In this document: positions 15,667-32,606 of the stretch, piece by piece | Position numbering within the stretch: position 1 is the stretch's first letter | How the letters are laid out: each line of letters opens with the position of its first letter | Origin: Dehalococcoidia bacterium | GTDB taxonomy: Bacteria > Chloroflexota > Dehalococcoidia > SHYB01 | Direction of reading: 5' to 3' | NCBI GenBank assembly: GCA_009693015.1 | Contig: SHYB01000001.1 | Coordinates: 47,885-111,884, forward strand | Length of the DNA stretch: 64,000 nucleotides | Notes under the pieces: model-generated | Told to the model about the DNA's origin: nothing | What the model saw: only the letters and a program-made list of their open reading frames with translations | The model's database searches: none | Made by a program: the position numbers and the translations under genes

Positions 15667-16669
15667 GTCGCTCCTGCCATGTTGCCCATGCTGCGGCGTT
15701 CACTAGGCGGCGCGGCTGCTTGCCGTCCAGCGCCAGCAGGATATCCTCGCTGATCATTGCCGACTGGCGCAGTACAGTCTCCGCGGTGGCCCCGCCCATG
15801 TGCGGCGTGAGGAGGACGTTGTCCAGGGCCAGCAAGGGGCTGCTCTCCGGGAGCGGCTGGCCCTCGAACACGTCCAGCGCCGCGCCGGCGATGCGATGCG
15901 CCGCCAGCGCGGCGATCAGCGCTTGCTCGTCCACCACGCCGGCCGCGGACGTATTGACGAGGCGCGCCATGGGCTTCATGCGAGCCAGCTGAGCCTCCCC
16001 GATCAAGCCCATCGTGGCCTCGGCAGCCGCGGCGTGGATGAGCACATAGTCGGAATCGGCGAGCAAGCGGTCGAGGTCCGTGAGCGACACGCCGCTCTTT
16101 GCGGCTTGCTCCGCGCTGACGAACGGGTCGTGGGCGATGACGCGCATATCGAACGCGCGCAGGCGCTGGGCGACGAGCCGCCCGATGGCGCCAAGGCCGA
16201 TGATGCCTGCGGTCTTGCCGGCAAGCTCGACGCCGCGGAACTGGGTGTAGCCCGCCACGGGGTCCTGCCAGCGCCGCTCCACGATGTGCCGGTGCGCCGC
16301 GGCGATGGGCCGCGCCAGCCCCAGCATCAGGCCGATGGTGAGCTCGGCGACGGCCATCGCATTGCGCCCCAGCGCGTTGACCACCAGGATGCCGCGCTGC
16401 GTGGCGGCGTCCAGATCGATGTGGTTGAGCGCGTTGCGGCACACGCCGATCATTTCCAGGAGCGGCGCTTGCTGCATCACATCCTCGAACACGAAGTCCG
16501 CCTCTACGACGAGGTAGCTGGTCTGGTCGTCACGCAGCCGCCGCGCCAGCACGGCGGGATCGTGCAGCTCGCCCGTATCCAGCCAGCTTTCGTGGGTGAC
16601 GCGGAGGCGCTGCCGCAGCCGCGCCAGGCAGTCGCCATCGAACGGGGCGAGGACCAGCGCGTGTTTCAT
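15641..16669 (-). CDS. D-isomer-specific 2-hydroxyacid dehydrogenase family NAD(P)-dependent oxidoreductase
   Basis: 342 aa; GLGAIGRLVAQR Rossmann motif; catalytic R/E/H arrangement; start ATG overlaps hpnE stop (ATGA). Confidence 0.75.
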   Translation of the reverse strand: MKHALVLAPFDGDCLARLRQRLRVTHESWLDTGELHDPAVLARRLRDDQTSYLVVEADFVFEDVMQQAPLLEMIGVCRNALNHIDLDAATQRGILVVNALGRNAMAVAELTIGLMLGLARPIAAAHRHIVERRWQDPVAGYTQFRGVELAGKTAGIIGLGAIGRLVAQRLRAFDMRVIAHDPFVSAEQAAKSGVSLTDLDRLLADSDYVLIHAAAAEATMGLIGEAQLARMKPMARLVNTSAAGVVDEQALIAALAAHRIAGAALDVFEGQPLPESSPLLALDNVLLTPHMGGATAETVLRQSAMISEDILLALDGKQPRRLVNAAAWATWQERHGRAATQR

Positions 16670-18063
16670 GGCTTGCGCGCAACCTCATGAGCCTTGCCGG
16701 CGACCTCGCGGGCGCACAGCACGCCGCTGCGCACCGCGCTTTCCATGGTGGAGGGCCAGCCGGTGTCCGTCCATTCGCCGGCGAGAAAGAGATTGGGCAC
16801 CGGCGTGCGCTGCGGCAGGCGTCCCGCGGCGGCGCCGGGGCTGGGGCGGAAGGTGGCGTGCCGCTCTTTGACGATGACGCACCGCGTGACGGCGGCCCCC
16901 TGGGCGCGGGGCAACAGGCGCGGCATCTCTTCCACGAACTTCGCGCGGATTTCATCCTTGGGCATGTCGATGAACTTGTGTGCTCCGCTGAGAGAGACGG
17001 CGATGTACTGGCCGTGGCCCGACGTATCCCCGAGGATCAGGCTCTTGTTGAACACCCAGTGCGCGTCGCTGTCAGGGAACGCGGCGAAGGCGTGCACCAT
17101 CACCGGGCGGTCGTACCACAAGTGCACGTTGACGATGGGCGACATGGCGAGCTTGGCGGCGCGGCGAAAGAAATCGTCGCGGCGCAGCGGCTCCGGCAGG
17201 AGGTCCGCCATCTCGCGCGGCGGGACGGCGAGCACGTAGGCGTCAGCGTGCATGACGCCGTGCTGGTGGATGCGCAGGCGGGTGATGCCCGCGCCATCGC
17301 CATCGAGCTGTTCGGCGTGGTGATCGAGCAGCACAGCGCCGCCGCGCGCTTCAATGTAGCGCTGCGCTTCTTGGTACAGCAGATTGGAGAGGCCGACGCT
17401 GGCGTAGCCGATGTCCGCGCCGTGGACGGTGGCGAGGAAGCCTTCCTGGAACACCATGATCGCTTGGGCGGCGCTGACGCGGCGAGGTTCATCGTTGAGC
17501 GTGGGCAGGATGACGAAGTTCCAGAAACGGTCAATGGCGGTGTCGCGCTGGCCGTGGGCCTTGAGCCAGTCGTAGAAGGAGACGTTGTCCAGGCGGTCGC
17601 GGCTGCGGTGGGACATGAGGCGCATGCGTGCCGAGGCCCAGGCCACGCGCATGCGGTCGCCGAACGAGAGGTGATGGTAGCGCAGCAGCGCGGGCGCAAG
17701 GTGCAGCGGCGGGGGCCAGAGCGGGGCGCTGTAGAGATCGGCGCGGCGCTGGCGGGCGTTGATCACGGGCACGCGCATGCGGCGCTGCATCGTGGTCTTG
17801 TGGGCGACACCGAGCTTATCCAGCAGGCCGGTGTAGGAGGTACAGCACTTCATGAAAACGTGCTGGCCGTTATCAATTTCCCGGTTACTTTCTTTATCGG
17901 TGAACGAGTAGACGCGCCCGCCGAGGTAGGGGCGGCGCTCCAGCAGGCGCACCTTCCAGCCCAGGCCGGCCAGTTCCATGGCGGCGGCGATGCCCGCCAG
18001 TCCGCCGCCGACGATGATGGCCTGCCGCGACGCTAGGCTTTCCCCAGCTTGGTTTTGAGCCAA
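16666..18063 (-). CDS. hpnE: hydroxysqualene dehydroxylase (squalene-associated FAD-dependent desaturase)
   Basis: 465 aa; IIVGGGLAGIAAA FAD motif, amine-oxidase fold, position after hpnC/hpnD. Confidence 0.8.
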   Translation of the reverse strand: MAQNQAGESLASRQAIIVGGGLAGIAAAMELAGLGWKVRLLERRPYLGGRVYSFTDKESNREIDNGQHVFMKCCTSYTGLLDKLGVAHKTTMQRRMRVPVINARQRRADLYSAPLWPPPLHLAPALLRYHHLSFGDRMRVAWASARMRLMSHRSRDRLDNVSFYDWLKAHGQRDTAIDRFWNFVILPTLNDEPRRVSAAQAIMVFQEGFLATVHGADIGYASVGLSNLLYQEAQRYIEARGGAVLLDHHAEQLDGDGAGITRLRIHQHGVMHADAYVLAVPPREMADLLPEPLRRDDFFRRAAKLAMSPIVNVHLWYDRPVMVHAFAAFPDSDAHWVFNKSLILGDTSGHGQYIAVSLSGAHKFIDMPKDEIRAKFVEEMPRLLPRAQGAAVTRCVIVKERHATFRPSPGAAAGRLPQRTPVPNLFLAGEWTDTGWPSTMESAVRSGVLCAREVAGKAHEVARKP

Positions 18064-18929
18064 ATTGTTCCCACCAGATAGAGTTTCTTGGATGTGGACA
18101 GGCGCACGCGCTCCTGGTGCACATTGTACCCTTGCTGCTCCATGCGGGTCAGCAGGGAGCTGTAGAGACCCTGGAGGGTGGCGGGGCAGACGCGGGTGCG
18201 GCGCGGCACCAGCGGCAGCAGCTTCGCTCCGCTGGCGAAGTACCCGCGGGCGCGGGCCGCCTGGAATCGCATGAGCGGGAGAAATCGCTCGTCCATCACG
18301 CCGTACCGCAGGTCGTCCTCGTAGTACTCGAAGCGGGCGAGCTCATCCAGCGGCAGGTAGACGCGGTCGCGTTCGATGTCTTCCTTCACGTCGCGCATGA
18401 TGTTGACCAGCTGCATGGCGATCCCTAGGTCAACGGCGTACTCCTTGGCCTTGGGGTCGGTGTAGCCGAAGATTTCCAGGCAAATCAGCCCGACTACGGA
18501 CGCGACGTGGTAGCAGTAGTCGCGCAGGCTGTCGAACGTCTGGTAGCGGCGCACGGTGAGGTCCATGACCACGCCGTCCAGGAGATCGTCAAAGTGCTGG
18601 CGGGGGATGCGGTAGGTGCGCACGACATCAGCGAGGGCGGTGAACACGGGGCCTTCGGGGTTGCCGGCGTAGCAGTCGTGGAGGCGCCGGCGCTGTTGGT
18701 CAAGCAACGCCTGCTTCTGCTCCAGGGGAATGGGTTCGTCGGCGTAGTCGTCGCAGGCGCGGCTGAAGGCGTAGACGGCGTAGATGGCCTGGCGCTGGCG
18801 CTGGGGCAAGGGCAGGAAGGCGAAGTAAAAGTTGCGCGCCTGCGTGCGGGCGATCTGCCGGCAGTGGCGGTAGGCCGCTTGCAGCGCCGCGGCGTCTGCG
18901 CCCACGGCGCCGCTACCTGCCGCGTACAC
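18033..18929 (-). CDS. hpnD: presqualene diphosphate synthase (squalene synthase family)
   Basis: 298 aa; trans-IPPS head-to-head fold, DDYADE Asp-rich motif; HpnC/HpnD assignment is by gene order. Confidence 0.7.
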   Translation of the reverse strand: MYAAGSGAVGADAAALQAAYRHCRQIARTQARNFYFAFLPLPQRQRQAIYAVYAFSRACDDYADEPIPLEQKQALLDQQRRRLHDCYAGNPEGPVFTALADVVRTYRIPRQHFDDLLDGVVMDLTVRRYQTFDSLRDYCYHVASVVGLICLEIFGYTDPKAKEYAVDLGIAMQLVNIMRDVKEDIERDRVYLPLDELARFEYYEDDLRYGVMDERFLPLMRFQAARARGYFASGAKLLPLVPRRTRVCPATLQGLYSSLLTRMEQQGYNVHQERVRLSTSKKLYLVGTIWLKTKLGKA

Positions 18930-19797
18930 GCTGCATCCCTAGCGCGGCGAAGGCTCCCGCGAGGAGCCGCAGCTTCCTGGCGCGGGAGACCTTGGGCCGT
19001 CGTGTCAGCGTATCGTAGCCCTGAGCGCGGATGGCGTCGAGGACGCTCATGCCGCCCAGGGTGAAGAGGCGCAGGTCAATGCGCAGCGCAGGGTCCACCA
19101 TGCCTGGAAGACCGGCGCCGTCCCGGAATAGCGCCCGCGCCCGCTCGACCTCGAACCGCATCAAGTCGCGGTAGTGTTGGTTCACCACGCCCGCCGCCAA
19201 CTCTTCTGGCGTGTAGCCGGACTGGGGGAAATCCTCGAGGGGGATATAGATGCGCCCCAGGTCGAAATCGCGTCTGACGTCCTGCCAGAAATTGGCGAGT
19301 TGCAGCGCGGTGCAGGTGGCGTCGGAGAGGCGCTGGCGCTCGGCGTCGTGGTAGCCAAACACAGACAGCACCATGCGCCCTACAGGGTTGGCGGAATGCT
19401 CGCAGTAGTGCAGCACATCGGCGTAGGTGGCGTAGCGGCTGTTGCGCTGGTCCATGCGGTTGGCTTCGATGAGCTTGAGGAACGGCTCGGCGGGCATGGC
19501 GTGGCGTCGCATGGTGTCTTGCAGGGCGATGAGAATAGGGTGCTCCGGCGTGGCGCTCGTGCAGCGGCGAAAGTCCCGCTCCCAGGAGTCCAGCAGCGCC
19601 AGGCGATCGCCGGGAGCCTCATCGCCCAGGTCGTCGGTGTGGCGGCAGAAGCCGTACACGGCGTACATGGAGGGGCGCAGGCGCTTGGGGAGGAACCAGG
19701 AGACGACGGTGAAGTTTTCGTAGTGCGACCGCGCCATGCGCTCGCAGCTGGCGTAGGCGCCGGCGAGGGTTGGGGGCGCGATGGCGGCGTGGGTCAT
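18913..19797 (-). CDS. hpnC: hydroxysqualene synthase (squalene synthase family)
   Basis: Squalene/phytoene synthase fold (YGFCRHTDDLGDE); start MTHAAIAPP chosen because longer track ORF runs into ispG. Confidence 0.7.
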   Translation of the reverse strand: MTHAAIAPPTLAGAYASCERMARSHYENFTVVSWFLPKRLRPSMYAVYGFCRHTDDLGDEAPGDRLALLDSWERDFRRCTSATPEHPILIALQDTMRRHAMPAEPFLKLIEANRMDQRNSRYATYADVLHYCEHSANPVGRMVLSVFGYHDAERQRLSDATCTALQLANFWQDVRRDFDLGRIYIPLEDFPQSGYTPEELAAGVVNQHYRDLMRFEVERARALFRDGAGLPGMVDPALRIDLRLFTLGGMSVLDAIRAQGYDTLTRRPKVSRARKLRLLAGAFAALGMQRVRGR

Positions 19798-19852
19798 GGT
19801 GCGTGTAGTCGGGGCATCACGCGGGTCATCAGGTTCAGCGCCCCGTTTCGCA

Positions 19853-21169
19853 TTACGCCGTGACCTTGGCGCCCCAGCGCTTGGCGACGTACTCTTCGAC
19901 CATGGCGATGAAGTCGGTGGCGATCGTTGCGCCCTCAAGGAAAGTGACGCGCTCTCCGTCAACGAAGACCGGGGCGCGGGGCGCTTCGCCGCTGCCGGGC
20001 AGCGAGATGCCGAGGTGCGCGGCGCGGGATTCGCCGGGGCCGTTCACCACGCAGCCCATGACGGCGACCTTCAGCGTCTCCGCGCCGGCGTACTGTGCCT
20101 TCCACTGCGGCATCTTGGCGTCCAGGTGTGTCTGAATGTCACGCGCCAATTCGCGGAAGAGGGAGGAAGTGGTGCGTCCGCAGCCGGGGCAGGAGGTGAC
20201 GGCGGGACGGAACGAGCGCAGGTCCAGCGCCTGGAGGATTTCCTGGCACAGGCGCACCTCGCGGGAGCGGTCGCCACCGGGCTCCGGCGTGAGGCTGGAG
20301 CGAATGGTGTCGCCGATGCCGTCGTAGAGCAGCACGGAGAGGGCCGCGGCGGTGGCGACGACTCCTTTGCTGCCCATGCCGGCCTCGGTCAGCCCTAGGT
20401 GCAGGGGAAGGTCGCAGCGGCGGGCCAGTTCGCGGTAGGCCTCCACCATTTGGGACAGGCGGGAGACCTTGCAGGAGACGATGATCTTGTTCTCCGGCAG
20501 GCCCAGGGCCACGGCGGCCTCGGCGCTGGCCAGGGCGCTCTCCACCAGCGCTTCGCGCTCCACCTCATCGCCGGTGAGGGGCGTGGCGCGGCGCGAGTTT
20601 GCGTCCATTTTCGAGATCAGCAGGTCCGGGTCCAGGCTGCCCGCGTTGACGCCGATGCGCACCGGCTTGCCCAGGTCGCGGGCCACGTCAATGAACGCGC
20701 GGAAGTTGTCATCATGGCGCGGGCCGCGGCCCACGTTGCCTGGGTTGATGCGGAACTTGTCCAGCGTCTTGGCGCAGCCGGGATGATCGCGCAGCAGGCG
20801 GTGGCCGATGAAGTGGAAGTCGCCCACGATGGGCACGCGGCAGCCGAGGGCGTCCAGGCGCTGGCGGATTTCCGGGACGGCGCGCGCGGCGGCGTCGTTG
20901 TTCACCGTGACGCGCACTAGTTCGCTGCCCGCGTCCGCCAGCAGCTTGACCTGGGCCACCGTCGCCTGGATATCGGCAGTGTCCGTATCTGTCATGGACT
21001 GCACGACGATAGGGTTCATGCCGCCCACGGCGACGTTGCCGACCATGACGACTTTCGCGGCGCGGCGGCGGGTGATGGCGTGTGCGCCGGCGACTTGCGG
21101 GGGCCGCGAATCCGCGATGACTTTTCCCCGTACCGGCCTGCGTATGTTTTCTGTTGCCATATTTGTCAC
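19853..21169 (-). CDS. ispG: 4-hydroxy-3-methylbut-2-enyl diphosphate synthase
   Basis: 438 aa GcpE; CPGCGRT and GCVVNGPGE Fe-S motifs. Confidence 0.9.
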
Positions 21170-21252
21170 CTTGCTGGGATCGTTAGCCGAGCCAATGCAA
21201 TGACCCTGCGGACGGACTGCGGATGGCTCGGTGCTTTAGTCCGGCACGAAAG

Positions 21253-23211
21253 TCAGACATTATCCGCCTCTTGGCGCAGGGCCTCGCGGTACTGGCCCAG
21301 GGCCATGAGGGGCCAGTAGTCCCGGTACATATGGTAGTTGATCATGAAATCGTGGGGAAAGCCAGTGCCGGTGAACTGCGGCTCGTCCCAGGAGCCGTGC
21401 GGCTTCTGCGTGTGCAGCAGGTATTCTACGGCGCGTCGGGCCGTTCTGCCGCGCGCCTCCCCCGCGGCAATGAGCGCCAGCAGCGCCCATGACGTCTGCG
21501 ATGCGGTGCTGGGGCCGCGCCCTGCCATATCTGGGTTACGATACGACTCGCACGCTTCGCCGAAGCCGCCGTCGGCGTTGGGATGCGAGTCCAGCCATTC
21601 GACCGCTTTGCGTACCGCGGGCTGGCCCATGTCTTCGCCGGCCCATTTGAGCGCGGGCAGCACCGACCCCAGGCCATAGACGTAGTTCACGCCCCAGCGG
21701 CCCCACCAGGAGCCGTCGCGTTGCTGCGCGCCGTAGAGGTAGCGGAGCGCACGCTGGACAACGGCGCTGCGACTTTCGTGCCCCGCGCGTCCAAAGTACT
21801 CCAGGGCATGCGCCGTGACATCCTCCGTGGGCGGGTCAATCACTTCGCCGAAATCGCAGAAGGGGATCGTCGTCATGAGCCTGCGCGTGTTGTCCACGTC
21901 GAACGATCCCCACCCGCCGTTGCGGTTCTGCATCCCTTCCATCCATGCTGCGCCGCGCTCCAGCGCCTGCGCCATGCGAGGGTTGCCGTCCCACCCCATC
22001 TTGCGCAACGCGATGAGCACCATCGCCGTATCGTCCACGTCAGGGTAGGTGGCATTATCGAACTCGAACGCCCACCCGCCTGGCTGGAGGCGGGGGCGCT
22101 TCACCTGCCAGTCGCCGCCATGATCAAGGACCTGGTTCTTGAGCAGCCATTCCGTGGACTTCACCAGCGCTGGGTGCGCCGGCGGAAGGCCGGAGTCTTG
22201 CAGCGCGAGCATGGCGATGCAGGTGTCCCACACTGGGGAGACGCATGGCTCGGTGTGGAAGGTGTCCGCCGTCTCTCTGGCGAATCGCTCGAAGCCGGCG
22301 AAGCCCTTGGCCATGACGGGATGGTCCATGGGATACCCGAGGGTCTTGAGGGCCATGAGAGCATAGACCCACGGCGGCTGGATGCCTCCCCAAGAGCCGT
22401 CGGCCTCCTGGCGTTCCAAGAGCCAGCGCTCCGCCTTGCGGAGGGCCACGCCGCGCAACGGCTTGACCGGCGACATTTCCATGAGGCGCAGGCCTTTGTC
22501 CACGCCGCGGAAGAAGCCCGTCCAGCTCAAGGGCGAGCCGTTCTTGCCGAAGGTGTATCTGGTGCGGTGCCGTCCCAGCGGGTACAGTTCGTCAATGCTG
22601 GCGTAGGACGGCACATGGCATGTAGGCTTGAGCGACAGCAGCACGGTGCAGGCGACGATGGTAGCGCGGGCCCAGGCGGCGAAATCGTAGATATTCCCCG
22701 GCATCCACGGGGGCACGAGCATCATCTCCGGCGGCAGCGCGGGAGTGCCGCGCCAGTCCCACTGGCCGAAGAGCGCCAGCCACATCTTGGTGAACACCCG
22801 CGTGTTGGGCACGCCGCCCAGGGCCAGGGCCACCTCGCGGGCTCTGCGCATCGCCGGGTCATTGGGGTCCACGCCGGCGAGCTTCATGGCGAAGTAGCAT
22901 TCGACGGTGCAATTCAGATCGCTGGGCCCGCCGTGCCACACCGCCCAGCCGCCCTCCGGCAGTTGCTGTTCGCGGAGGTAGCTGACGATCTTGCGCCAGC
23001 GCTGGGGGTCGGGCTTGCCGAGGAAGTGGGTGAGCAGGAGGTATTCGGCGTGGATGGCGCAGTTGGCTTCCAGCTCTCCCCACCAGGAGCCGTCAGGGAA
23101 TTGCACCCGCAGCAGGTAGTCCTGGGAGGCCTGGATGCCTTGGCTGAGGCGCTCCGCCAGCGGAGGCTCGCCACGCATGGCGGGCTGGCGCGGGGCGTCA
23201 TGCGTAGCCAT
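21253..23211 (-). CDS. shc: squalene-hopene cyclase
   Basis: about 650 aa; multiple QW repeats, DVDDTA catalytic motif; start MATHD (alternative 23241). Confidence 0.9.
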   Translation of the reverse strand: MATHDAPRQPAMRGEPPLAERLSQGIQASQDYLLRVQFPDGSWWGELEANCAIHAEYLLLTHFLGKPDPQRWRKIVSYLREQQLPEGGWAVWHGGPSDLNCTVECYFAMKLAGVDPNDPAMRRAREVALALGGVPNTRVFTKMWLALFGQWDWRGTPALPPEMMLVPPWMPGNIYDFAAWARATIVACTVLLSLKPTCHVPSYASIDELYPLGRHRTRYTFGKNGSPLSWTGFFRGVDKGLRLMEMSPVKPLRGVALRKAERWLLERQEADGSWGGIQPPWVYALMALKTLGYPMDHPVMAKGFAGFERFARETADTFHTEPCVSPVWDTCIAMLALQDSGLPPAHPALVKSTEWLLKNQVLDHGGDWQVKRPRLQPGGWAFEFDNATYPDVDDTAMVLIALRKMGWDGNPRMAQALERGAAWMEGMQNRNGGWGSFDVDNTRRLMTTIPFCDFGEVIDPPTEDVTAHALEYFGRAGHESRSAVVQRALRYLYGAQQRDGSWWGRWGVNYVYGLGSVLPALKWAGEDMGQPAVRKAVEWLDSHPNADGGFGEACESYRNPDMAGRGPSTASQTSWALLALIAAGEARGRTARRAVEYLLHTQKPHGSWDEPQFTGTGFPHDFMINYHMYRDYWPLMALGQYREALRQEADNV

Positions 23212-24184
23212 GCGCCCGGCACCATGTGATTGCATCTGCAAATGCTTGCTCCGGCGGCGTCTGCGGCAAGCCCAGCTCCTGCACCGCGCGGGAGGAGTCG
23301 AAATACATATGCTTGCGGGAGAGTTTGACCTCTGCCACGGTGACGCGTGGGGTGCGCCGCAGCAGCCGTCCCGTGACGGTTTCCTCGGCGCAGGCGTACA
23401 GCAGCGCGGCCAGGTAGGGGATGCGGCGCCGCGGCGGCTGGCAGCCGGCGATGCGGGCGATGGACTGGCAGATCTCCAGCAGGCTCATGTTGCGGTTGCC
23501 CAGGAGATAGCGCTCTCCCGGCTTGCCGCGGCGCATCGCCTGGATGTGGCCGCGCGCCACATCGCGTACGTGCACGATGTTGAGCCCGGTGTCCACGTAG
23601 CCGCTCATTCTGCCGCGCAGCACCTCCACCACGATCCTGCCCGTGGGCGTGGGTTTCACATCCCAGGGGCCCATAGGGGTGGTGGGGTTGACGATGACCA
23701 CTTCCAGCCCGTTGCCGTTGGCGCGAAGGGCCTCCTGCTCCGCCAGGTACTTGGAACGCTTGTACCCTGCCTGCATATCGCGGACTCTCACCGGGGTGGA
23801 CTCGTTCCCCGGCGTGCCGTCTTTCGGCAGGCCGATGGTGCCTGACGAGCTGGTATACACCACGCGCCGCACGCCCGTCTCCCGCGCCGCGGTAAGGAAC
23901 GCTCGCGTTCCCAGGACGTTCACCTGGTGTGTGAGCCGGTGGTCCGGGGGCCAGAAGACGTAGTGGGCGCCGGCGTGGTATGCCTCGCGGCAGCCCTGGA
24001 GGGCCTCCCGCAGCGATGCTGCGTCGCGCAGGTCGCCTTCGGCCAGCTCCACATGCAAGCCGGAGAGCGCCGTGCGGTCGCTGGCGGGCCGCGCCAGCAC
24101 GCGCACCGTTTCGCCGTCCGCGAGCAGTTCGCGTACGAGGTTGCTGCCGATGAAGCCGGTGGCGCCGGTGACCAGGACCGTCAT
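23198..24184 (-). CDS. hpnA: hopanoid-associated NAD-dependent sugar epimerase/dehydratase
   Basis: MTVLVTGATGFIGS Rossmann start, YxxxK; position between hpnG and shc. Confidence 0.7.
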   Translation of the reverse strand: MTVLVTGATGFIGSNLVRELLADGETVRVLARPASDRTALSGLHVELAEGDLRDAASLREALQGCREAYHAGAHYVFWPPDHRLTHQVNVLGTRAFLTAARETGVRRVVYTSSSGTIGLPKDGTPGNESTPVRVRDMQAGYKRSKYLAEQEALRANGNGLEVVIVNPTTPMGPWDVKPTPTGRIVVEVLRGRMSGYVDTGLNIVHVRDVARGHIQAMRRGKPGERYLLGNRNMSLLEICQSIARIAGCQPPRRRIPYLAALLYACAEETVTGRLLRRTPRVTVAEVKLSRKHMYFDSSRAVQELGLPQTPPEQAFADAITWCRAHGYA

Positions 24185-24954
24185 CGCCGCACCGCGAAGG
24201 CGGCAGGATAGCGGGCGAGCAGCAGTTCGGCGAAGGCGGCGATGTTGCGCGCGCCCAATCGGGCGTTCGCCGCGAGGCCGGGCGTGGCGGGAATGTGCCA
24301 GGGGTGGGTGGCGTAATACCACGCGGCGCTGAGCATGCGCACTTCGCCCATCGGGTCGAGAAATCGCTCGTAGTCGGGCAGCGTGTCCGTGCTGGTGTCG
24401 GAGGCGGCGCGCACTGCCAGGGCGGGCGTGCCTGCCTCGCCGGCCGCCTGGGCCACCCAGTAGCTTTCCATGTCTACCGCCGCCGCTTGAAACTGCGCCG
24501 CAAACTGGGCCTTCTGCCTGGGGCCGGGCATGGCGTGGGGTACGCTGACGATCGTGCCCCGGTGGGCGCGCACAAACTCCTCCTCCAGCCAGCCGAGGCT
24601 TGCGTCCACCAGCGCGGCATCGGCGGCGATGGGCGGGTGGCTGGAGGCGTCCCCCGCTTCATCCGGCGCCATGAGCCGGGCGGCGACGACGAGGTCACCG
24701 CCTTTCACGGCAGGGGACGCGCCGCCGGAATAGCCTGTGGTCACGATGAGCGCGGGGCGGTAGCGGGCGCAGGCGGCCTGCGTGGCGCGGATGGAGCGTT
24801 CTTTGCCGATGCCCGACTGCACCAGCGCCAGAGGGGTGCCCTCAAGGCGACCTTCCGTGAATATGGCGCCCTCGAGCTGCCGGCGGACAGGCGCTGCCAG
24901 AAGGCGCTCGATCTCCGCCAGTTCCCGTCGCAGCGCGGCGATAAACACGAGCAC
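24181..24954 (-). CDS. hpnG: hopanoid-associated phosphorylase/nucleosidase (PNP/MTAN fold)
   Basis: 257 aa PNP-UDP family pattern; synteny with hpnH. Confidence 0.7.
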   Translation of the reverse strand: MLVFIAALRRELAEIERLLAAPVRRQLEGAIFTEGRLEGTPLALVQSGIGKERSIRATQAACARYRPALIVTTGYSGGASPAVKGGDLVVAARLMAPDEAGDASSHPPIAADAALVDASLGWLEEEFVRAHRGTIVSVPHAMPGPRQKAQFAAQFQAAAVDMESYWVAQAAGEAGTPALAVRAASDTSTDTLPDYERFLDPMGEVRMLSAAWYYATHPWHIPATPGLAANARLGARNIAAFAELLLARYPAAFAVRR

Positions 24955-24959
24955 GCTGG

Positions 24960-25340
24960 TTACTCCTGCTCTTGTGCCGCGGTCTCGCCGCGGCCTTCGT
25001 CTGCGCCGCGGGCAGCAGTCTTGGCGAGGACAGCGTCGCGGCGCTTCGCCCAGGCGTCCCAGCTTTTGCCCGCGGAGGTGTCCTTGCCGCTGAAGCGGAT
25101 GCCCGCGATCCGCGCATAGGGCAGGCGCGTGGGGCCGTTGCCCTCCACATCGAAGTACTCGATGAACGGCGCAGGCCCCGTGGCGTTGCGATTAGAGACG
25201 TAGCATTCCAGCAGCGCGCCGTCTGTGAGCGCCAGCGTGACGTTGCCGCGATAGTCGAAGGCGTGCTCGATGATCTGCGCCAGCGGCAGTTCCGGCCCCG
25301 GCTGCGCCGCCCACCCCTCCCGACTGGTTTCTTCAGGCAT
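24960..25340 (-). CDS. hypothetical protein embedded between hpnH and hpnG
   Basis: 126 aa ORF, tightly packed (29 nt after hpnH, 5 nt before hpnG); no family recognised. Confidence 0.45.
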   Translation of the reverse strand: MPEETSREGWAAQPGPELPLAQIIEHAFDYRGNVTLALTDGALLECYVSNRNATGPAPFIEYFDVEGNGPTRLPYARIAGIRFSGKDTSAGKSWDAWAKRRDAVLAKTAARGADEGRGETAAQEQE

Positions 25341-25369
25341 TGGTGCTTGCTCCTAGAGCTTTCCGCTGC

Positions 25370-26392
25370 CTACAGCTTGCCGCTGATAGTGGCGATCACT
25401 GTCTTGCCGAAGGCCACGGGGGAGCCGAACGTCTTGCTCACGGCAGTGGCCTCAAAGCCGCAATGCACCATGCAGTCCTTGCACTTGGGGTTGCCGCTGG
25501 CCTTGCCGTAGCTGTCCCACGCTGTGGTCTCCAGCAACTCCTTGAACGTGGCGGCGTACCCCTCCTGCAGGAGGTAGCATGGCCGCTGCCAGCCGAAATT
25601 GTTGTACAGCGGCATGCCCCACGGCGTGCATTCGTAGTTATGCTTGCCCATGAGGAACTGGAGGAACAGCGGCGATTGGTTGAACTGCCACGCACGCTTC
25701 TTATTGGAGAGGACGCTGGAGAACAGTTCGTTGGTGCGCTGCTTCTGGAGGAAGTGCTCTTGATCGGGGGCCTTGGAATAGCTGTACCCCGGCGAGATCA
25801 TCATGCCTTCCACGCCCAGGGCCATCATATCGTCGAAGAACCTACGCATGCCCAGAGGCTGCGTGTTATCGAACAGCGTGCTGTTGGTGGTCACGCGAAA
25901 GCCCCGGCTCACCGCCGCCTTGATCGCCTCCACGGCCACGTCATAGGTGCCATCGCGGCAGACGGATGCATCGTGCTGCTCGCGGGGGCCGTCCATGTGC
26001 ACGCTGAAGCTCAGGTACTTGGATGGCGTGAACAGCCCTTGCTCCAGTTTTTCCTTGAGCAGGAGCGCATTGGTGCAGAGGTATATGTACTTGCGGCGCT
26101 TGACCAGCTCCCGCACCAGCTCGGCGATGTGCGGGTACATCAGCGGCTCGCCGCCGGCGATGCTCACCATGGGGGCGCCGGACTCCTGCATGGCGTGGAG
26201 GCACTGCGCCACGGAGAGGTTCTTTTTGAGGATTTGCGCGGGGTACTGGATTTTGCCGCATCCCGCGCAGGCCAGGTTGCAGCGAAAGAGGGGCTCCAAC
26301 ATCAGCACCAGAGCGTACCGCTTGCGCCGCATGATCTTCTGGCGCATCACGTGCTGGGTCACCGTCCACGCCTGCGCCACGGGTACTGCCAT
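25370..26392 (-). CDS. hpnH: adenosylhopane synthase (radical SAM)
   Basis: 340 aa; CNLACAGCG radical-SAM cluster motif; typical HpnH length and C-terminal Cys-rich region. Confidence 0.85.
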   Translation of the reverse strand: MAVPVAQAWTVTQHVMRQKIMRRKRYALVLMLEPLFRCNLACAGCGKIQYPAQILKKNLSVAQCLHAMQESGAPMVSIAGGEPLMYPHIAELVRELVKRRKYIYLCTNALLLKEKLEQGLFTPSKYLSFSVHMDGPREQHDASVCRDGTYDVAVEAIKAAVSRGFRVTTNSTLFDNTQPLGMRRFFDDMMALGVEGMMISPGYSYSKAPDQEHFLQKQRTNELFSSVLSNKKRAWQFNQSPLFLQFLMGKHNYECTPWGMPLYNNFGWQRPCYLLQEGYAATFKELLETTAWDSYGKASGNPKCKDCMVHCGFEATAVSKTFGSPVAFGKTVIATISGKL

Positions 26393-26443
26393 ATCTTACG
26401 ATCCTTCTCTAGGCCGGCCCTTGGGGCCAGCGGTACGGAGATG

Positions 26444-27511
26444 CTAGTGCTCCCGATCCATCAAAAACTGCACGAGGTCCGCGAATTCGGCGCGCGCCGC
26501 GGCGGAAAGATGCACCGGCGCCAGGGTTGCCATGCTGCGCTCCGCATGCTCCCGCGCCAGGCCGGTGCAGTAGGCGGCGGCGCGGACCTCGTCCAGCACC
26601 GCCAGCACGTCGTGCACATCGCCTTCTTGCAGCGGGCGGTCGCTTCGATAGATCGCCAGCATACGATCGCGTGACGCGCCCTCGGCGTGCGCGAGTGCGT
26701 AGACGATGGGCAGCGACTTCTTGCGGCGGTGGATATCGCCGGCGGCGGGCTTGCCTGTTTTGTCCTGGGCGCCCCATACGCCGAGCATATCGTCCCGAAC
26801 CTGGAACAGCAGGCCCAGGCCCTTGCCGAACAGGCGCATCGCTTCCACCGTGGATGGGTCCGCCGCCGCGGCCACTGCGCCCATGTGCAGCGACGCTTCC
26901 AAGAGCGCCCCCGTCTTTTTGTCGATCATCGTGAGATAGTCGTCCACGCGCACGCTGGGCCGCCGCTCGAACGTGAGGTCGAGCACCTGCCCTTCGATCA
27001 TCTCCAGCGAGGCGCGGGTGAGGATGCGCGAGATCTCCAGGCGGCGCTGCGGCGGCAGCGCGCCGGGGTTGGTGTCCAGCAGCGCCAGGTTGCCCAGGGC
27101 GTGCATGGCGTCGCCGGCGTTGATGCCGTGGCTCTGGCCCCAGATGTACCACACCGTCTTGCGATGGCGGCGCTCCGTGTCCCCGTCTTGAATATCGTCG
27201 TGGATGAGGGAGAAGTTGTGGATCAGCTCGATGGCCACCGCGGGGGGCAGCGCCTGCTCCTTTGTCCCGCCCACGGCTTCGCAGGCGAAGAGGCACAGCG
27301 CGGGGCGCACCTCCTTGCCCACGTTGGCATCGGCGGCGCGGCCCTGCTCGTCTTGCCATCCCAGGTGGTAGCGCAGCATGTCATAGAGGGGCGCCGTGCT
27401 GTCGGGGAACGCGGCCTTCAGCCCAGCGCGAATATCGCTGCGGTAGCGGGAGAAGACGTGGGGAATCGCGGTGGCAGGCATGGGTGCGGCTTGGCTGTCT
27501 GACCCTCTCAT
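26444..27511 (-). CDS. polyprenyl diphosphate synthase (FPP/GGPP synthase, IspA-like)
   Basis: Two Asp-rich motifs (LIHDDIQD, FQVRDDMLG); alternative start 27481. Confidence 0.8.
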   Translation of the reverse strand: MRGSDSQAAPMPATAIPHVFSRYRSDIRAGLKAAFPDSTAPLYDMLRYHLGWQDEQGRAADANVGKEVRPALCLFACEAVGGTKEQALPPAVAIELIHNFSLIHDDIQDGDTERRHRKTVWYIWGQSHGINAGDAMHALGNLALLDTNPGALPPQRRLEISRILTRASLEMIEGQVLDLTFERRPSVRVDDYLTMIDKKTGALLEASLHMGAVAAAADPSTVEAMRLFGKGLGLLFQVRDDMLGVWGAQDKTGKPAAGDIHRRKKSLPIVYALAHAEGASRDRMLAIYRSDRPLQEGDVHDVLAVLDEVRAAAYCTGLAREHAERSMATLAPVHLSAAARAEFADLVQFLMDREH

Positions 27512-27546
27512 TTCATCTCATTTCATCTCGTCATCTCGTCATCGTG

Positions 27547-29454
27547 TCAACGCGACGCCCGCGCGGTTGAGCGAGCGGCGGCAGCAGGACGCTGGGAGAA
27601 AAATGCTTCGCGCACCCGGCGGGCGATGCCTTCCGCGTCCAGTCCCAGTTGCTGTCTTTGCTGCGCTGCCGTGGCGTGTTCCACAAATGAGTCCGGCATG
27701 CCGATGCGCACGGTATGCACTCCGGTGACCCGTGCATCGCTGAGGGCTTCCAGCACCGCCGAGCCGAAGCCGCCATCGCGCACGTTCTCTTCCACCGTCA
27801 CCAGGCGTCCCGTGGCCTGGGCCGCGCGCACGATGAGCTCGCCGTCCATGGGCTTCACAAAGCGGGCGTTGACCACCATGCAGGAGATGCCGTCGCGCGC
27901 CAGCGCCGCCGCTGCCTCAAGCGCCGGCTGCACCGTCTTGCCGATTGCCACCAGGGTCACATCGCTGCCCTGGCGCACCACTTCCCCCTTGCCGATGGGC
28001 AGCGCGTGCAGCTCCGCATCCAGCGGCACGCCCAGGCCCGATCCCCGCGGGATGCGGATGGCGATGGGGTGCTGGTAGGTGTAGGCGGTGTAGACCAAAT
28101 GCTGCAGTTCGTTTTCGTCCTTGGGGGCGCAGACTACGGCGTTGGGCAGGCAGCGCAGGTAGGAAAGATCGTAGGCGCCGTGGTGCGTTTTGCCGTCTTC
28201 GCCCACGATGCCCGCGCGGTCGGCGATCAGCACCACGGGCAGGTCCTGGAGGCAGACGTCATGCACCACCTGGTCGAAGGCGCGCTGGAGGAAGGTGGAG
28301 TAGATGGAGACGAAGGGCTTGACGCCGTTGCTTGCCATGCCCGCCGCCACGCTGACGGCATGCTGCTCGGCGATGCCCACGTCGAACACGCGGTCGGGAT
28401 GCGCCTTCTTCGCCTCCGCCAGCCCGGTGCCTTCCAGCATCGCCGCGCTGATGCCCACGACCTTGCGGTCTGTGTCCATGAGCCGGATCAGCGTCTGGGC
28501 GAAGACCTTGGAGTAGGTGGGCGCGGTGCTGCCCCCGCTGATGAGCGGCGACGATGGCTGATGATAGCGCACGGGGTCTTCTTCGGCGGGCCCGTAGCCG
28601 CGGCCCTTGTGCGTGATGACGTGCACCAGCGGGGTCTTGCCCGAAAAGTTCTTCGCCTGGCGGAAGGCCTCTTCCAGCGCCTTGAGGTTATGCCCGTCCA
28701 CTGGGCCGATGTACTGCAAGCCCATCTCCGTCCACAGCGTCGTGGGCAGAGCGAACCCCTCCAGCCCGTGCTCGATGCGCCGCGCGAAGTTGTACACCAG
28801 CTCCCCCGTAGGGACCTTTTTCGCAAGGCGCTTCGTCCGCTTCACCATCGCCAGATACTCGGGGTGGGTGATGATCCGCTGGCGCCAGTGCGTGAGGAAG
28901 CCGATGTTCTCCGAGATGGACATGCCGTTATCGTTGAGCACCAGGATGAGATTGTCCGGGCTGAGGTGGGAGATGTTGTTGAGCGCCTCATAGCTGGAGC
29001 CGGAGGTCATGGCGCCGTCGCCGACGATGGCCACGCTCCACGCCGGGCTGCCGCGCAGCTTCTCCGCCTGGGCGATGCCCAGGGCGATGGAGAGTCCCGT
29101 GCCGGCGTGGCCGGCGCACAGCGTATCGTGGGGGCTTTCCGATGGTTCGCCGAACCCGGAGATGCCCTCCACCAGGCGGATGTCCTTGAACTCTTCCCGG
29201 CGTCCCGTGACGATCTTGTGGGTGTAGAGCTGATTGGTGGTGTCCCACACCAGCTTGTCCTTGGGGCTGTCAAACGACTGGTGCAGCGCCAGCGTCAGCT
29301 CCACCACGCCCAGGTTGGAGGCGAGGTGTCCGCCGCGTTGCGTGATGACGCTGATGATGAGATCGCGAACTTCCTGGGCCACCTGCTTGAGAGCCTTACG
29401 ATCCAGACTCTTGAGGTCGGCAGGCGTGTGAATGGAGTCGAGCATGCGTCCCAT
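27547..29454 (-). CDS. dxs: 1-deoxy-D-xylulose-5-phosphate synthase
   Basis: 635 aa; TPP-binding GDG..N motif, transketolase-like domains, N-terminus MGRMLDSIHTPADLK. Confidence 0.9.
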   Translation of the reverse strand: MGRMLDSIHTPADLKSLDRKALKQVAQEVRDLIISVITQRGGHLASNLGVVELTLALHQSFDSPKDKLVWDTTNQLYTHKIVTGRREEFKDIRLVEGISGFGEPSESPHDTLCAGHAGTGLSIALGIAQAEKLRGSPAWSVAIVGDGAMTSGSSYEALNNISHLSPDNLILVLNDNGMSISENIGFLTHWRQRIITHPEYLAMVKRTKRLAKKVPTGELVYNFARRIEHGLEGFALPTTLWTEMGLQYIGPVDGHNLKALEEAFRQAKNFSGKTPLVHVITHKGRGYGPAEEDPVRYHQPSSPLISGGSTAPTYSKVFAQTLIRLMDTDRKVVGISAAMLEGTGLAEAKKAHPDRVFDVGIAEQHAVSVAAGMASNGVKPFVSIYSTFLQRAFDQVVHDVCLQDLPVVLIADRAGIVGEDGKTHHGAYDLSYLRCLPNAVVCAPKDENELQHLVYTAYTYQHPIAIRIPRGSGLGVPLDAELHALPIGKGEVVRQGSDVTLVAIGKTVQPALEAAAALARDGISCMVVNARFVKPMDGELIVRAAQATGRLVTVEENVRDGGFGSAVLEALSDARVTGVHTVRIGMPDSFVEHATAAQQRQQLGLDAEGIARRVREAFFSQRPAAAARSTARASR

Positions 29455-29614: not shown

Positions 29615-31519
29615 CTAAGAAACCGGCGCCGCCTCTTCAGCAGCGGGCGCAACCGCGCCATTCATCTTGCGGGCGATGAACTGCTGGATGTCAGCCTCGT
29701 CCAGCGGCGGCGGCGCCGCGGCAAAGAACTCCTGGAGCGTCTTGCCTTCCATGGTTTCATCTATGAGCAGACGCTTGGACAGCTCATGGAGCTTGGCCTT
29801 GTGTTCCACCAGAACCTTGCTTGCTCTGGCATAGGCATCTTCCACAAGCGAGCGGATTTCGCTGTCGATCTCGTCGGCGATCTTGTCGCCGTAGTCGCGC
29901 TGCTCGGAGATTTCACGGCCCAGGAAGACGAGCTCCTGGCGCTGGCCGAAGGTGCGCGGGCCCAAGCGATCGCTCATGCCCCACTCCGTTATCATGCGCC
30001 GGGCGATGCCGGTGGTCTGCTTGAGGTCGTCGGAGGCGCCGCTGGTCAGCTCGCCGAAGATGATCTCTTCCGCGGCGCGTCCGCCCAAGGAGATCGCCAT
30101 GCGGTCGCGCAAATAGCTCCTGCTGGCGTAGTGGCGTTCTTCGCTGGGCAGGAACCGCGTGTAGCCTCCCGCCATGCCGCGCGGGACGATGGTGATCTTG
30201 TGCACCACGTCGCCTTCCTTGAGCTTGTACGCCACCAGGGCGTGACCCGCTTCATGGTAGGCGGTGACCTTCTTTTCGTGATCGGTGATGACGCGGCTCT
30301 TGCGCTCCGGCCCGGCAATGACGCGGTCCACCGCCTCTTCCAGCTCCGAGATGCCGATAACCTTTTTGCCGCGGCGCGCCGCCAGCAGAGCGGCCTCGTT
30401 GACTAGATTGGCAAGGTCGGCGCCGCTGAAGCCCGCCGTCTCCTTGGCAATGACTTCCAGGTCCACCTTTTCATCCAGGGGTTTGCCCTTCACGTGCACG
30501 TTGAGGATGGACTTGCGCCCGGCGATGTCCGGGGCGTCCAGCACCACGCGTCGGTCGAACCGGCCCGGCCGCAAGAGCGCTGGGTCAAGGATGTCCGGCC
30601 TGTTTGTGGCCGCAATAATGATGATATTGGTGGTCTGATCGAAGCCGTCCATCTCCACGAGGATCTGGTTCAGCGTCTGCTCACGCTCGTCATGACCGCC
30701 GCCTAGGCCCGCGCCGCGATGCCGTCCCACCGCGTCAATCTCGTCAATGAAGATGATGCATGGTGAGTTGCGGCGCGCCTGCTCGAACAGGTCTCGGACG
30801 CGGGACGCGCCCACGCCGACGAACATCTCCACGAACTCGCTGCCGCTGATGCTGAAGAACGGCACGCCGGCCTCTCCGGCCACGGCCTTGGCCAGCAGCG
30901 TCTTGCCCGTGCCCGGCGGTCCAACCAGCAGCACGCCCTTGGGGATGCGCGCGCCGAGGGCGGCGAACCGCTCGGGGTACATGAGGAACTCCACGATCTC
31001 CTGCAGCTCCTGCTTGGCCTCTTCCACGCCGGCAACGTCAGAGAACGTCACCGTGGTGCGGTTGCCCACAAACATGCGTGCGCGGCTCCGGCCGAAGCTC
31101 ATGGCCTGGCTGTTGCTGCCCTGCGCCTGGCGCATCATGAACAGGATGATGAAGCCCAAGAACAGGAAGGGCAGGATGTTGATGATGATGGCGATGATCG
31201 TCCCCAGCGAACTGGAGGACTTCACCGTCACGTCGGGAGGGTTCTCGATGGGCGGATTGGCGTTATTGAGCAGCTCGATCATGCTGACGCTGGGCTCTTT
31301 TTTGGAGCGATACCTCAGGTTGCCCTTGGCTTCCGCGGTGATGGCATCCCCATCCACGTTGATCTTGGTGATCTCGCCGGAGCGTACCTTAGTGAGCAGT
31401 TCGCTGATGCCGATATCGCTGCTGCTACCGGGCGAACGGAACACAGCGTAAAAGATGGCGATCACCGCCACCAGGATGAGCATATACACGAGACCGCTTC
31501 TGAGCCAGCGCTGATTCAT
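29615..31519 (-). CDS. ftsH: ATP-dependent zinc metalloprotease FtsH
   Basis: TM helix [15 protein letters not shown], Walker [17 protein letters not shown] zinc motif; start MNQRWL (upstream in-frame extension rejected). Confidence 0.85.
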
Positions 31520-31808
31520 CTGCTTGAGCCGAGCCTCCAGACTACCCCTGGCCACAAGTGCGGCAAGGCCACTGCGCCGCTGGACAGCCTCACCGTTCCG
31601 GGCGTATGCCGCAAAGGGACTGGGGGACGATACGGACATTATACCAAACCACTCAGATTGCGGCGCCCGTACAGGCCCAAGAGGCCCCGCCGGCGGCGCA
31701 GCCGTCATGAGAGGCCGATGTGGTATGATGCGGGCGTTCCCTTGCGACAGGCTTTTTGATGGCCGCTGCGCTGTTCGCGCGGGCAGTGGCGGTGAGGAGG
31801 CGGGACGC

Positions 31809-32606
31809 ATGCCAACGGCGATGGTTTCCCAGAACCTGGGTGATGCGGTGACGCAGTTCTTGACCGCCAGCAATGGCAAGGGCGGTCCCGTCTTGCAGGA
31901 GGGCCTGCAAAAGTTCCTGCGCTGGTCGGGGCGCGAGCGTCTCGTGTCCCAGTTGAATCCGTACCAGATTGAGTCCTACTGCGAGGCGAGCGCGGGCGCT
32001 CCGGCGGAAAAGCTGGCAGCCCTGAAATCGTTCCTCGACTACGCCTTCAAGGCAGGCCTCACGGACGCCAACCTGGGAACGCACGTCAAGATGCGTAAGG
32101 GCCTTTCCAAGGCGAAGAAGGCCACGCCGTCGGCTTCCTCCGCTCCGGTGTTCAAGCTCACCAAGGGAGGGCTGGCCAAGGCCCAGGCGGAGGTCCAGGA
32201 GTTGAAGGAGCAGCGTATCCACATCGCCGATGAGATCCGGCGGGCGATGGCGGACAAAGACTTTCGTGAAAACGCCCCGCTGGATGCAGCGCGGGATAAG
32301 CAAGGGCACCTAGAGGCGCGCATTCGAGAGCTGGAGCACACGTTGCGGTACGCGCAGGTGGTGGAGAGCGATTCCACGGCTACGGGCCGCGCTCGCCAGG
32401 GCAGCCGCGTCGTCGTTCGCGATATGACACATAATGAGGAAGTGGTGTATACGTTGGTTGACCGCACCGAGGTGAACCTGCGGCTGGGCAAGCTTTCCGT
32501 TCATTCGCCCGCAGGCAAGGCGTTTCTCGGGCGGGCGCCCGGGGAAGTGGTCAAGGTAGTGGCGCCCAACGGCCAGCACCAGTATCGCATCGAACGGGTG
32601 GAGTGA
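31809..32606 (+). CDS. GreA/GreB-family transcription elongation factor homolog with about 100-aa N-terminal extension
   Basis: GGAGG RBS before ATG 31809; C-terminal GreA coiled-coil plus FKBP-like domain pattern (..ENAPLDAARDKQ..RIRELE.. ..VVYTLV..). Confidence 0.55.
   Translation: MPTAMVSQNLGDAVTQFLTASNGKGGPVLQEGLQKFLRWSGRERLVSQLNPYQIESYCEASAGAPAEKLAALKSFLDYAFKAGLTDANLGTHVKMRKGLSKAKKATPSASSAPVFKLTKGGLAKAQAEVQELKEQRIHIADEIRRAMADKDFRENAPLDAARDKQGHLEARIRELEHTLRYAQVVESDSTATGRARQGSRVVVRDMTHNEEVVYTLVDRTEVNLRLGKLSVHSPAGKAFLGRAPGEVVKVVAPNGQHQYRIERVE

Follow-up and report, generated by a model that had tools for sequence, protein, structure and literature searches.

Hopanoids, which rank among the major lipids of bacterial membranes, also serve as geological biomarkers, and the transfer of an adenosyl group to diploptene by HpnH, a radical SAM enzyme, is the first step in building their C35 side chain. 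To our knowledge, several points of the side-chain pathway are unsettled, namely how soluble HpnH gains access to membrane diploptene, what supplies the hydrogen atom and the second electron, and how adenosylhopane is handed off; we also know of no enzyme that carries out the step from ribosylhopane to BHT. Elsewhere among radical SAM enzymes, auxiliary modules occur as separate proteins, such as the PqqD-like RRE partners with their winged-helix fold, or as fused domains, such as the TRAM barrel of MiaB/RimO.

A review from 2026 on radical SAM enzymes that modify lipids describes HpnH itself without a partner. The closest description of a candidate comes from subdivision 1 Acidobacteria, where a hypothetical protein of ca. 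150 aa, named "ug3" and with no established function, follows hpnH in an ispA-shc-hpnH cluster (Sinninghe Damste et al. 2017, PMC5462960, including its Table S1). A more recent microsynteny study, working through existing domain annotations, proposed hpnL, hpnM, hpnS and hpnT as hopanoid-associated families (bioRxiv 10.1101/2025.07.29.667474).

Here we describe a 126-residue protein, hereafter X, encoded directly after hpnH in a 64,000-nucleotide stretch of a Dehalococcoidia bacterium contig (SHYB01000001.1; "the window"). We consider X a strong candidate for an undescribed HpnH helper because it lies directly after hpnH in at least six phyla. The acidobacterial members of its family (127-167 aa) occupy the same place as ug3, in the order shc-hpnH-X (loci L053, L058, L071, L078, L088 and others), and we match the two by description; the ug3 mention was the only prior literature on the family that we found (PMC5462960), and our literature search returned no mutant or assay data on an effect of X on hopanoids. 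Unlike the present data, the ug3 report covers one phylum, leaves the family undefined and gives neither its fold and motifs nor its spread among phyla. X shares microsynteny with hopanoid genes with hpnL, hpnM, hpnS and hpnT, but those are candidates for periplasmic or membrane transport in diderm Proteobacteria, whereas X has no detected transmembrane segment and follows hpnH. Because X carries no domain annotation, it was invisible to the domain-based microsynteny study.

Within the window, X sits in a tightly packed supercluster of isoprenoid and hopanoid genes (Table 1). An FtsH gene (29615-31879) lies upstream of this supercluster, and 2-hydroxyacid dehydrogenase and FGGY kinase genes lie downstream; its gene order is retained in a related contig (L001) at 76-90% protein identity. 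The preliminary description of this DNA, made from the letters alone, had reported an ORF wedged 29 nt after hpnH and 5 nt before hpnG, and both gaps are confirmed here. The first, between the hpnH stop codon TAG (25372-25370) and the X ATG (25340), contains an AGGAG, and the second leads to a PNP_UDP_1 gene with a GTG start (24954). The name "hpnG" reflects position and family for this gene and is no equivalog call, because its product scores below the curated HpnG cut-off (TIGR03468, 90 against 187.1); it also scores below that for MTA/SAH nucleosidase (94.7 against 169), and it may represent a divergent Chloroflexota type of HpnG. A scan of the window found no terminator-like or promoter-like site at the hpnH/X/hpnG boundaries, and an Rfam scan of the whole window gave zero matches. 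Separately, the hpnA ORF as listed begins with a GTG 142 nt inside hpnG; the true hpnA start is probably 24184, because the match to the HpnA profile starts at residue 47, at an ATG that overlaps the stop codon of hpnG (ATGA).

Table 1 Features of the X locus in the window (position 1 is the first nucleotide of the window)
Feature	Position	Strand	Details
Packed isoprenoid/hopanoid supercluster	16666-29454	-	dxs, polyprenyl synthase, hpnH, X, hpnG-like, hpnA, shc, ispG, two SQS_PSY (squalene/phytoene synthase; hpnC/hpnD-like), amine-oxidase hpnE-like
hpnH (radical SAM adenosylhopane synthase)	25370..26392	-	TIGR03470 523.6 bits against a cut-off of 225; Radical_SAM + DUF3463
AGGAG, Shine-Dalgarno-like	25350..25354	-	9 nt upstream of the X ATG; read from sequence
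ORF X (unannotated hpnH-linked family)	24960..25340	-	126 aa, ATG to TAA
N-terminal motif S-R-E-G-W (family consensus SLEGW)	25311..25325	-	Low-confidence predicted region
Motif 1, AFDYRGNVT	25236..25262	-	Residues 27-35; Y30, R31, G32 invariant family-wide
Predicted Sm-like core	25092..25283	-	Helix 20-30; strands 33-38, 43-52, 59-64, 71-74, 78-83
Motif 2, FSGKDTSAGKSWDAW	25050..25094	-	Residues 83-97; candidate docking or ligand motif
PNP_UDP_1 nucleosidase/phosphorylase, hpnG position	24181..24954	-	PF01048 4e-30

X is a real gene rather than a chance ORF, because its third-position GC content is like that of its neighbors, its orthologs show the signature of selection on protein sequence, and 35 alignment columns are invariant among the 11 close homologs retrieved by our initial search. 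Specifically, GC by codon position in X is 0.69/0.54/0.83, a pattern shared by the neighboring genes, and pairwise comparison of four X orthologs gives dN/dS of 0.27-0.47 at dS of 0.7-1.2, indicating purifying selection. The ORFs that overlap X in other frames and on the opposite strand were dismissed as shadow ORFs on the basis of their GC3 (0.60-0.75 for those in other frames) and absent conservation. An identical protein is already recorded as a hypothetical protein from a Dehalococcoidia metagenome-assembled genome. The preliminary description had named a lack of conservation together with poor coding potential as the outcome that would count against the ORF; the coding statistics above and a link to hpnH spanning six phyla are clearly the reverse.

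The encoded protein is hydrophilic and acidic (pI 4.9, GRAVY -0.58), as opposed to the basic HpnH (pI 9.2). Its N-terminus is hydrophilic, and no transmembrane or signal-peptide-like hydrophobic stretch was detected in it. We also considered its C-terminal helix as a membrane anchor and found no support for the idea, as the hydrophobic moment is only 0.43 and the mean hydrophobicity negative.

X belongs to a large, well-defined, unnamed family that is linked to hopanoid genes. A profile search of 1.84 billion cluster representatives returned 711 clusters at E<=1e-3 and 324 at E<=1e-10 (50%-identity clusters), and two word-indexed searches each returned at least 8000 clusters at 90% identity. 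Using motif 1 as the search pattern, with which both the genome and the metagenome loci discussed below were retrieved, a scan of GTDB (one genome per species) identified at least 598 confirmed X-family species genomes. Nearly all members are stand-alone proteins of 90-160 aa, all cluster members are named "hypothetical protein", and no Pfam domain occurs in the family clusters apart from two read-throughs from the HpnH C-terminus. Consistent with the preliminary description, which had seen no recognizable family, searches of X and 41 relatives against Pfam, NCBIfam, PADLOC and PHROGs yielded zero family matches (for X itself, NCBIfam gave only a 12.5-bit chance match), and profiles built from 11 and from 85 sequences matched PDB sequences at chance level only. 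A tblastn search against plasmids likewise found no match.

The genomic position of this family is conserved. Using tblastn with the window proteins, we found that the gene directly upstream of X, on its own strand, is hpnH in 79 of 80 genome loci, these being the best 80 of at least 598 GTDB species matches; in the sole exception, the available sequence ends 217 nt upstream of X. The loci were drawn from Methylomirabilota/Rokubacteria, Dehalococcoidia, Nitrospirota, Planctomycetota, Acidobacteriota and Methylacidiphilum, and the phyla with hpnH-X are Chloroflexota, Methylomirabilota, Nitrospirota, Planctomycetota, Acidobacteriota and Verrucomicrobiota. A second sample comprised 80 metagenome loci, ordered by how closely they resemble a divergent X member; hpnH lies directly upstream in 62 of the 68 that have at least 400 nt of upstream sequence, and lineages looked up individually show the same adjacency. 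At least 14 loci have a candidate in-frame start for X that overlaps the hpnH stop codon by 1-8 nt (e.g., ATGA), suggesting coupled translation.

Everything outside this pair varies, with outer neighbors that include ATP synthase genes, cytochrome bd-like genes, hpnA and arginine decarboxylase. One locus (L097) consists of an isolated hpnH-X pair, flanked by a helicase and, at its opposite end, by arginine decarboxylase. Among the 80 genome loci, an hpnG-like gene follows X only in Dehalococcoidia and Methylomirabilota-type clusters, Nitrospirota loci have no hpnG-like gene within 6 kb, and in Acidobacteriota loci it is hpnA that comes after X. The conserved link of X is therefore with hpnH and not with hpnG. 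This modifies the preliminary description: the hpnH-X-hpnG arrangement whose conservation it had asked about is confined to the two lineage types just named, while its hpnH-X portion is broadly kept. Conserved gene order lends strong support to its proposal that X is an accessory factor in making the hopanoid side chain, with hpnH alone as the partner instead of the hpnH/hpnG pair.

Position between hpnH and hpnG in the window is also the sole support for the idea that X is itself a side-chain pathway enzyme, such as a ribosylhopane reductase or the missing phosphatase suggested in the preliminary description. In addition to the link tracking hpnH and not hpnG, the predicted barrel of X comprises only about 65 residues, the family has no conserved Cys or His, and X contains no cofactor motif, no DxDxT-type motif and no match to a catalytic family. 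We thus regard an enzymatic role as scarcely credible, and the phosphatase proposal is not borne out. Of the other roles named in the preliminary description, X may be a carrier or a chaperone.

Several lineage-specific variations accompany the hpnH-X pair. In a Nitrospira-like locus (L091, 4845-10595), the pair precedes genes for a CarboxypepD_reg-like protein, cytochrome c, a subunit of a cytochrome bd-like oxidase, a Rieske protein and cytochrome b; crude ORF clustering suggests that about 27-33 genome loci share this downstream set, which looks like lineage-specific synteny. Acidobacterial HpnH (L053, L058, L071 and others) carries a C-terminal extension of ~35 aa (...LNEPVKPVHAFNPLVQI...EETRA), and acidobacterial X has an N-terminal extension of ~25 aa together with a conserved acidic tail (...GEKNIALEPEPLD); these extensions may be co-evolved additions.

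We additionally evaluated evidence for fusion of the two proteins. Only three sequences (P0126, P0132 and P0287) join the HpnH C-terminus to X, and all look like artifacts: P0132 derives from a contig at 2x coverage (L090) in which hpnH is itself frameshifted, and P0126 and P0287 resemble the outcome of frameshifts or read-through. No fusion occurs in any of 77 genome loci. These rare single ORFs look like assembly errors or pseudogenes and not true fusions, and we do not count them as evidence.

The hpnH link also has exceptions. In a Planctomycetota-like clade (L095, L099, L100, L102, L103, L168), X keeps its motifs and hpnH is absent within 5 kb. The conserved neighborhood there (L095, 3792-5869) runs from a response regulator through an unknown protein of 113 aa and cpYpsA (PF12694) to X and a 139-aa membrane protein whose CxxC...CPxC motif is zinc-ribbon-like, with some loci carrying only part of this set. 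Another divergent X member adjoins a GNAT acetyltransferase gene. In a further locus lacking hpnH within 5 kb (L101, 2722-5369), the start of X (139 aa) precedes the shc stop by 4 nt, so that the two overlap; a homolog of the 139-aa membrane protein from L095 comes after X in this locus. The occupation of non-hopanoid contexts by one clade would be expected if X served the cell in some general way, with no tie to hopanoids, and kept its place after hpnH simply as inherited gene order. We find this improbable, as hpnH-X adjacency persists in six phyla in which the other neighbors all change, and as isolated hpnH-X pairs, stop/start overlaps and the one re-association with shc all argue against passive inheritance.

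Nor do all HpnH enzymes appear to depend on X. The Streptomyces HpnH of Sato et al. 2020 (cited in PMC13459092) is reportedly active alone in vitro, which argues that X is not universally required. The same is indicated by subdivision 3 Acidobacteria, in which ug3 is reported absent from the hpnH gene cluster and BHP genes are present (PMC5462960).

The preliminary description had proposed structure prediction as a check, and the same topology emerged from two AlphaFold2 runs, one using 11 and the other 85 aligned sequences, with core pLDDT of 82-93 and mean pLDDT of 73-74. The model shows the order that characterizes Sm/LSm/Hfq folds, i.e., an N-terminal alpha helix and then five strongly bent beta strands forming a barrel, and continues past the strands into a long helix from residue 92. 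A Foldseek search with this model placed WYL and LSm domains at the top, with E values of 8.8e-3 at best, and the structural neighbors include Hfq, LSm, an archaeal Hfq-like protein whose solved structure includes AMP (5dy9), and the WYL domains of BrxR, DriD, CapW and PafBC. The models therefore assign X to the Sm-like fold class with good confidence, homology to LSm or WYL not being established. X and 41 relatives lack an Sm1/Sm2 signature and any Pfam LSM or Hfq match, and the nearest profile hints are a Phage_Hfq match at E = 0.13 in one of 11 relatives and a weak hint of the ROF profile. Similarly, the WYL profile PF13280 gave no match at E up to 10, PADLOC gave none, and the architecture of wHTH, WYL and WCX is absent.

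X thus shares a predicted fold with the Sm/LSm/Hfq proteins but has its own motifs and is acidic where they are basic, and it is tied to a lipid-modifying enzyme whereas they are tied to RNA metabolism. It likewise differs from the ligand-sensing WYL domains of BrxR, CapW, DriD and PafBC in standing alone and in lying outside any defense or damage-response context. These fold matches, together with the Phage_Hfq and ROF hints, nonetheless raise the question of whether X could be an Hfq-like or WYL-like nucleic-acid-binding regulator of hopanoid genes. Such a role is distinctly improbable in our judgment: a pI of 4.7-5.3 argues against RNA binding, no HTH or WCX domain accompanies the barrel, and X is usually coupled to one enzyme gene instead of standing at an operon boundary.

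Positions conserved at 90% or more family-wide are G9, A27, T35, G41, F83, G85, D87, A89, G91, S93 and W97. Motif 1 takes the family form AFDYRG[DN]VT at the helix-strand junction, and motif 2 the form FxGxDTAxGKSWxxW past the last strand. In the N-terminal motif, the close set shows no variation at S6, E8, G9 or W10, with G9 retaining its conservation in the 85-sequence set, and pLDDT for residues 1-10 is 54-58. Motif 2 is the best-conserved segment of X, yet its pLDDT is below 60 in both models, falling below 50 at residues 87-92 and reaching ~58 at residues 91-100. This low confidence in models of X alone fits a segment that may become ordered only upon binding.

What X might bind through these motifs could be a small ligand. 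Nucleotides or nucleic acids are the typical ligands of Sm-like and WYL-like barrels, with 5dy9 and its AMP and the WYL domains among the neighbors of X, and the invariant polar and aromatic residues Y30, R31, T35, D87, S93 and W97 would suit a ligand pocket. The clade without the hpnH link places X next to cpYpsA, which we take to be a SLOG-type nucleotide-binding family, and in the window X sits between the enzymes that make and cleave adenosylhopane. The ligand of X could accordingly be an adenine nucleoside moiety, whether SAM, 5'-deoxyadenosine or the adenosyl head of adenosylhopane, with X standing between HpnH and the nucleosidase as a sensor, carrier or hand-off factor. With zero profile matches to nucleotide-binding families, and with X tracking hpnH even where hpnG is far off, we rate this possibility as rather unlikely.

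The explanation that we favor, with moderate confidence, is that X is a non-catalytic, dedicated partner of HpnH in adenosyl addition to diploptene. X would be a small, acidic, soluble protein whose Sm-like core is flanked by two conserved and probably flexible motifs. Made together with HpnH, it would dock on this basic enzyme through its invariant Tyr-Arg-Gly and DTAxGKSWxxW surfaces, and once docked may stabilize or activate it; alternatively, X may help substrate or product pass between squalene-hopene cyclase, HpnH and the next enzyme. Its action may rest on contact with HpnH, on contact with the adenosyl moiety, or on both. HpnH has no solved structure in the PDB by our search, the best match being BlsE at 1e-6. 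In its proposed role as a small non-catalytic module serving one radical SAM enzyme, adjacent or fused to it, X would resemble the RRE and TRAM modules, from which it nonetheless differs: the RRE has another fold, TRAM is fused, both recognize peptide or RNA and not a triterpene, and we detected no homology of either to X.

A more specific version of the partner role can be put forward only tentatively. It is possible that X founds a new hopanoid biosynthesis family, in which an Sm-like barrel forms a stoichiometric complex with HpnH, perhaps bridging to squalene-hopene cyclase, and is needed in the six phyla for the efficient or stereo-controlled formation of adenosylhopane and for its hand-off.

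If this were true, X would be the first auxiliary subunit with an Sm fold known for a radical SAM enzyme that modifies lipids. The family would in addition give metagenome annotators a further useful marker of hopanoid loci. As a protein that stays next to hpnH in six phyla and is unseen by domain databases, X offers a concrete, cheap and directly testable target, and even if it should prove dispensable, a large family with a defined context would be added to the conserved unknowns.
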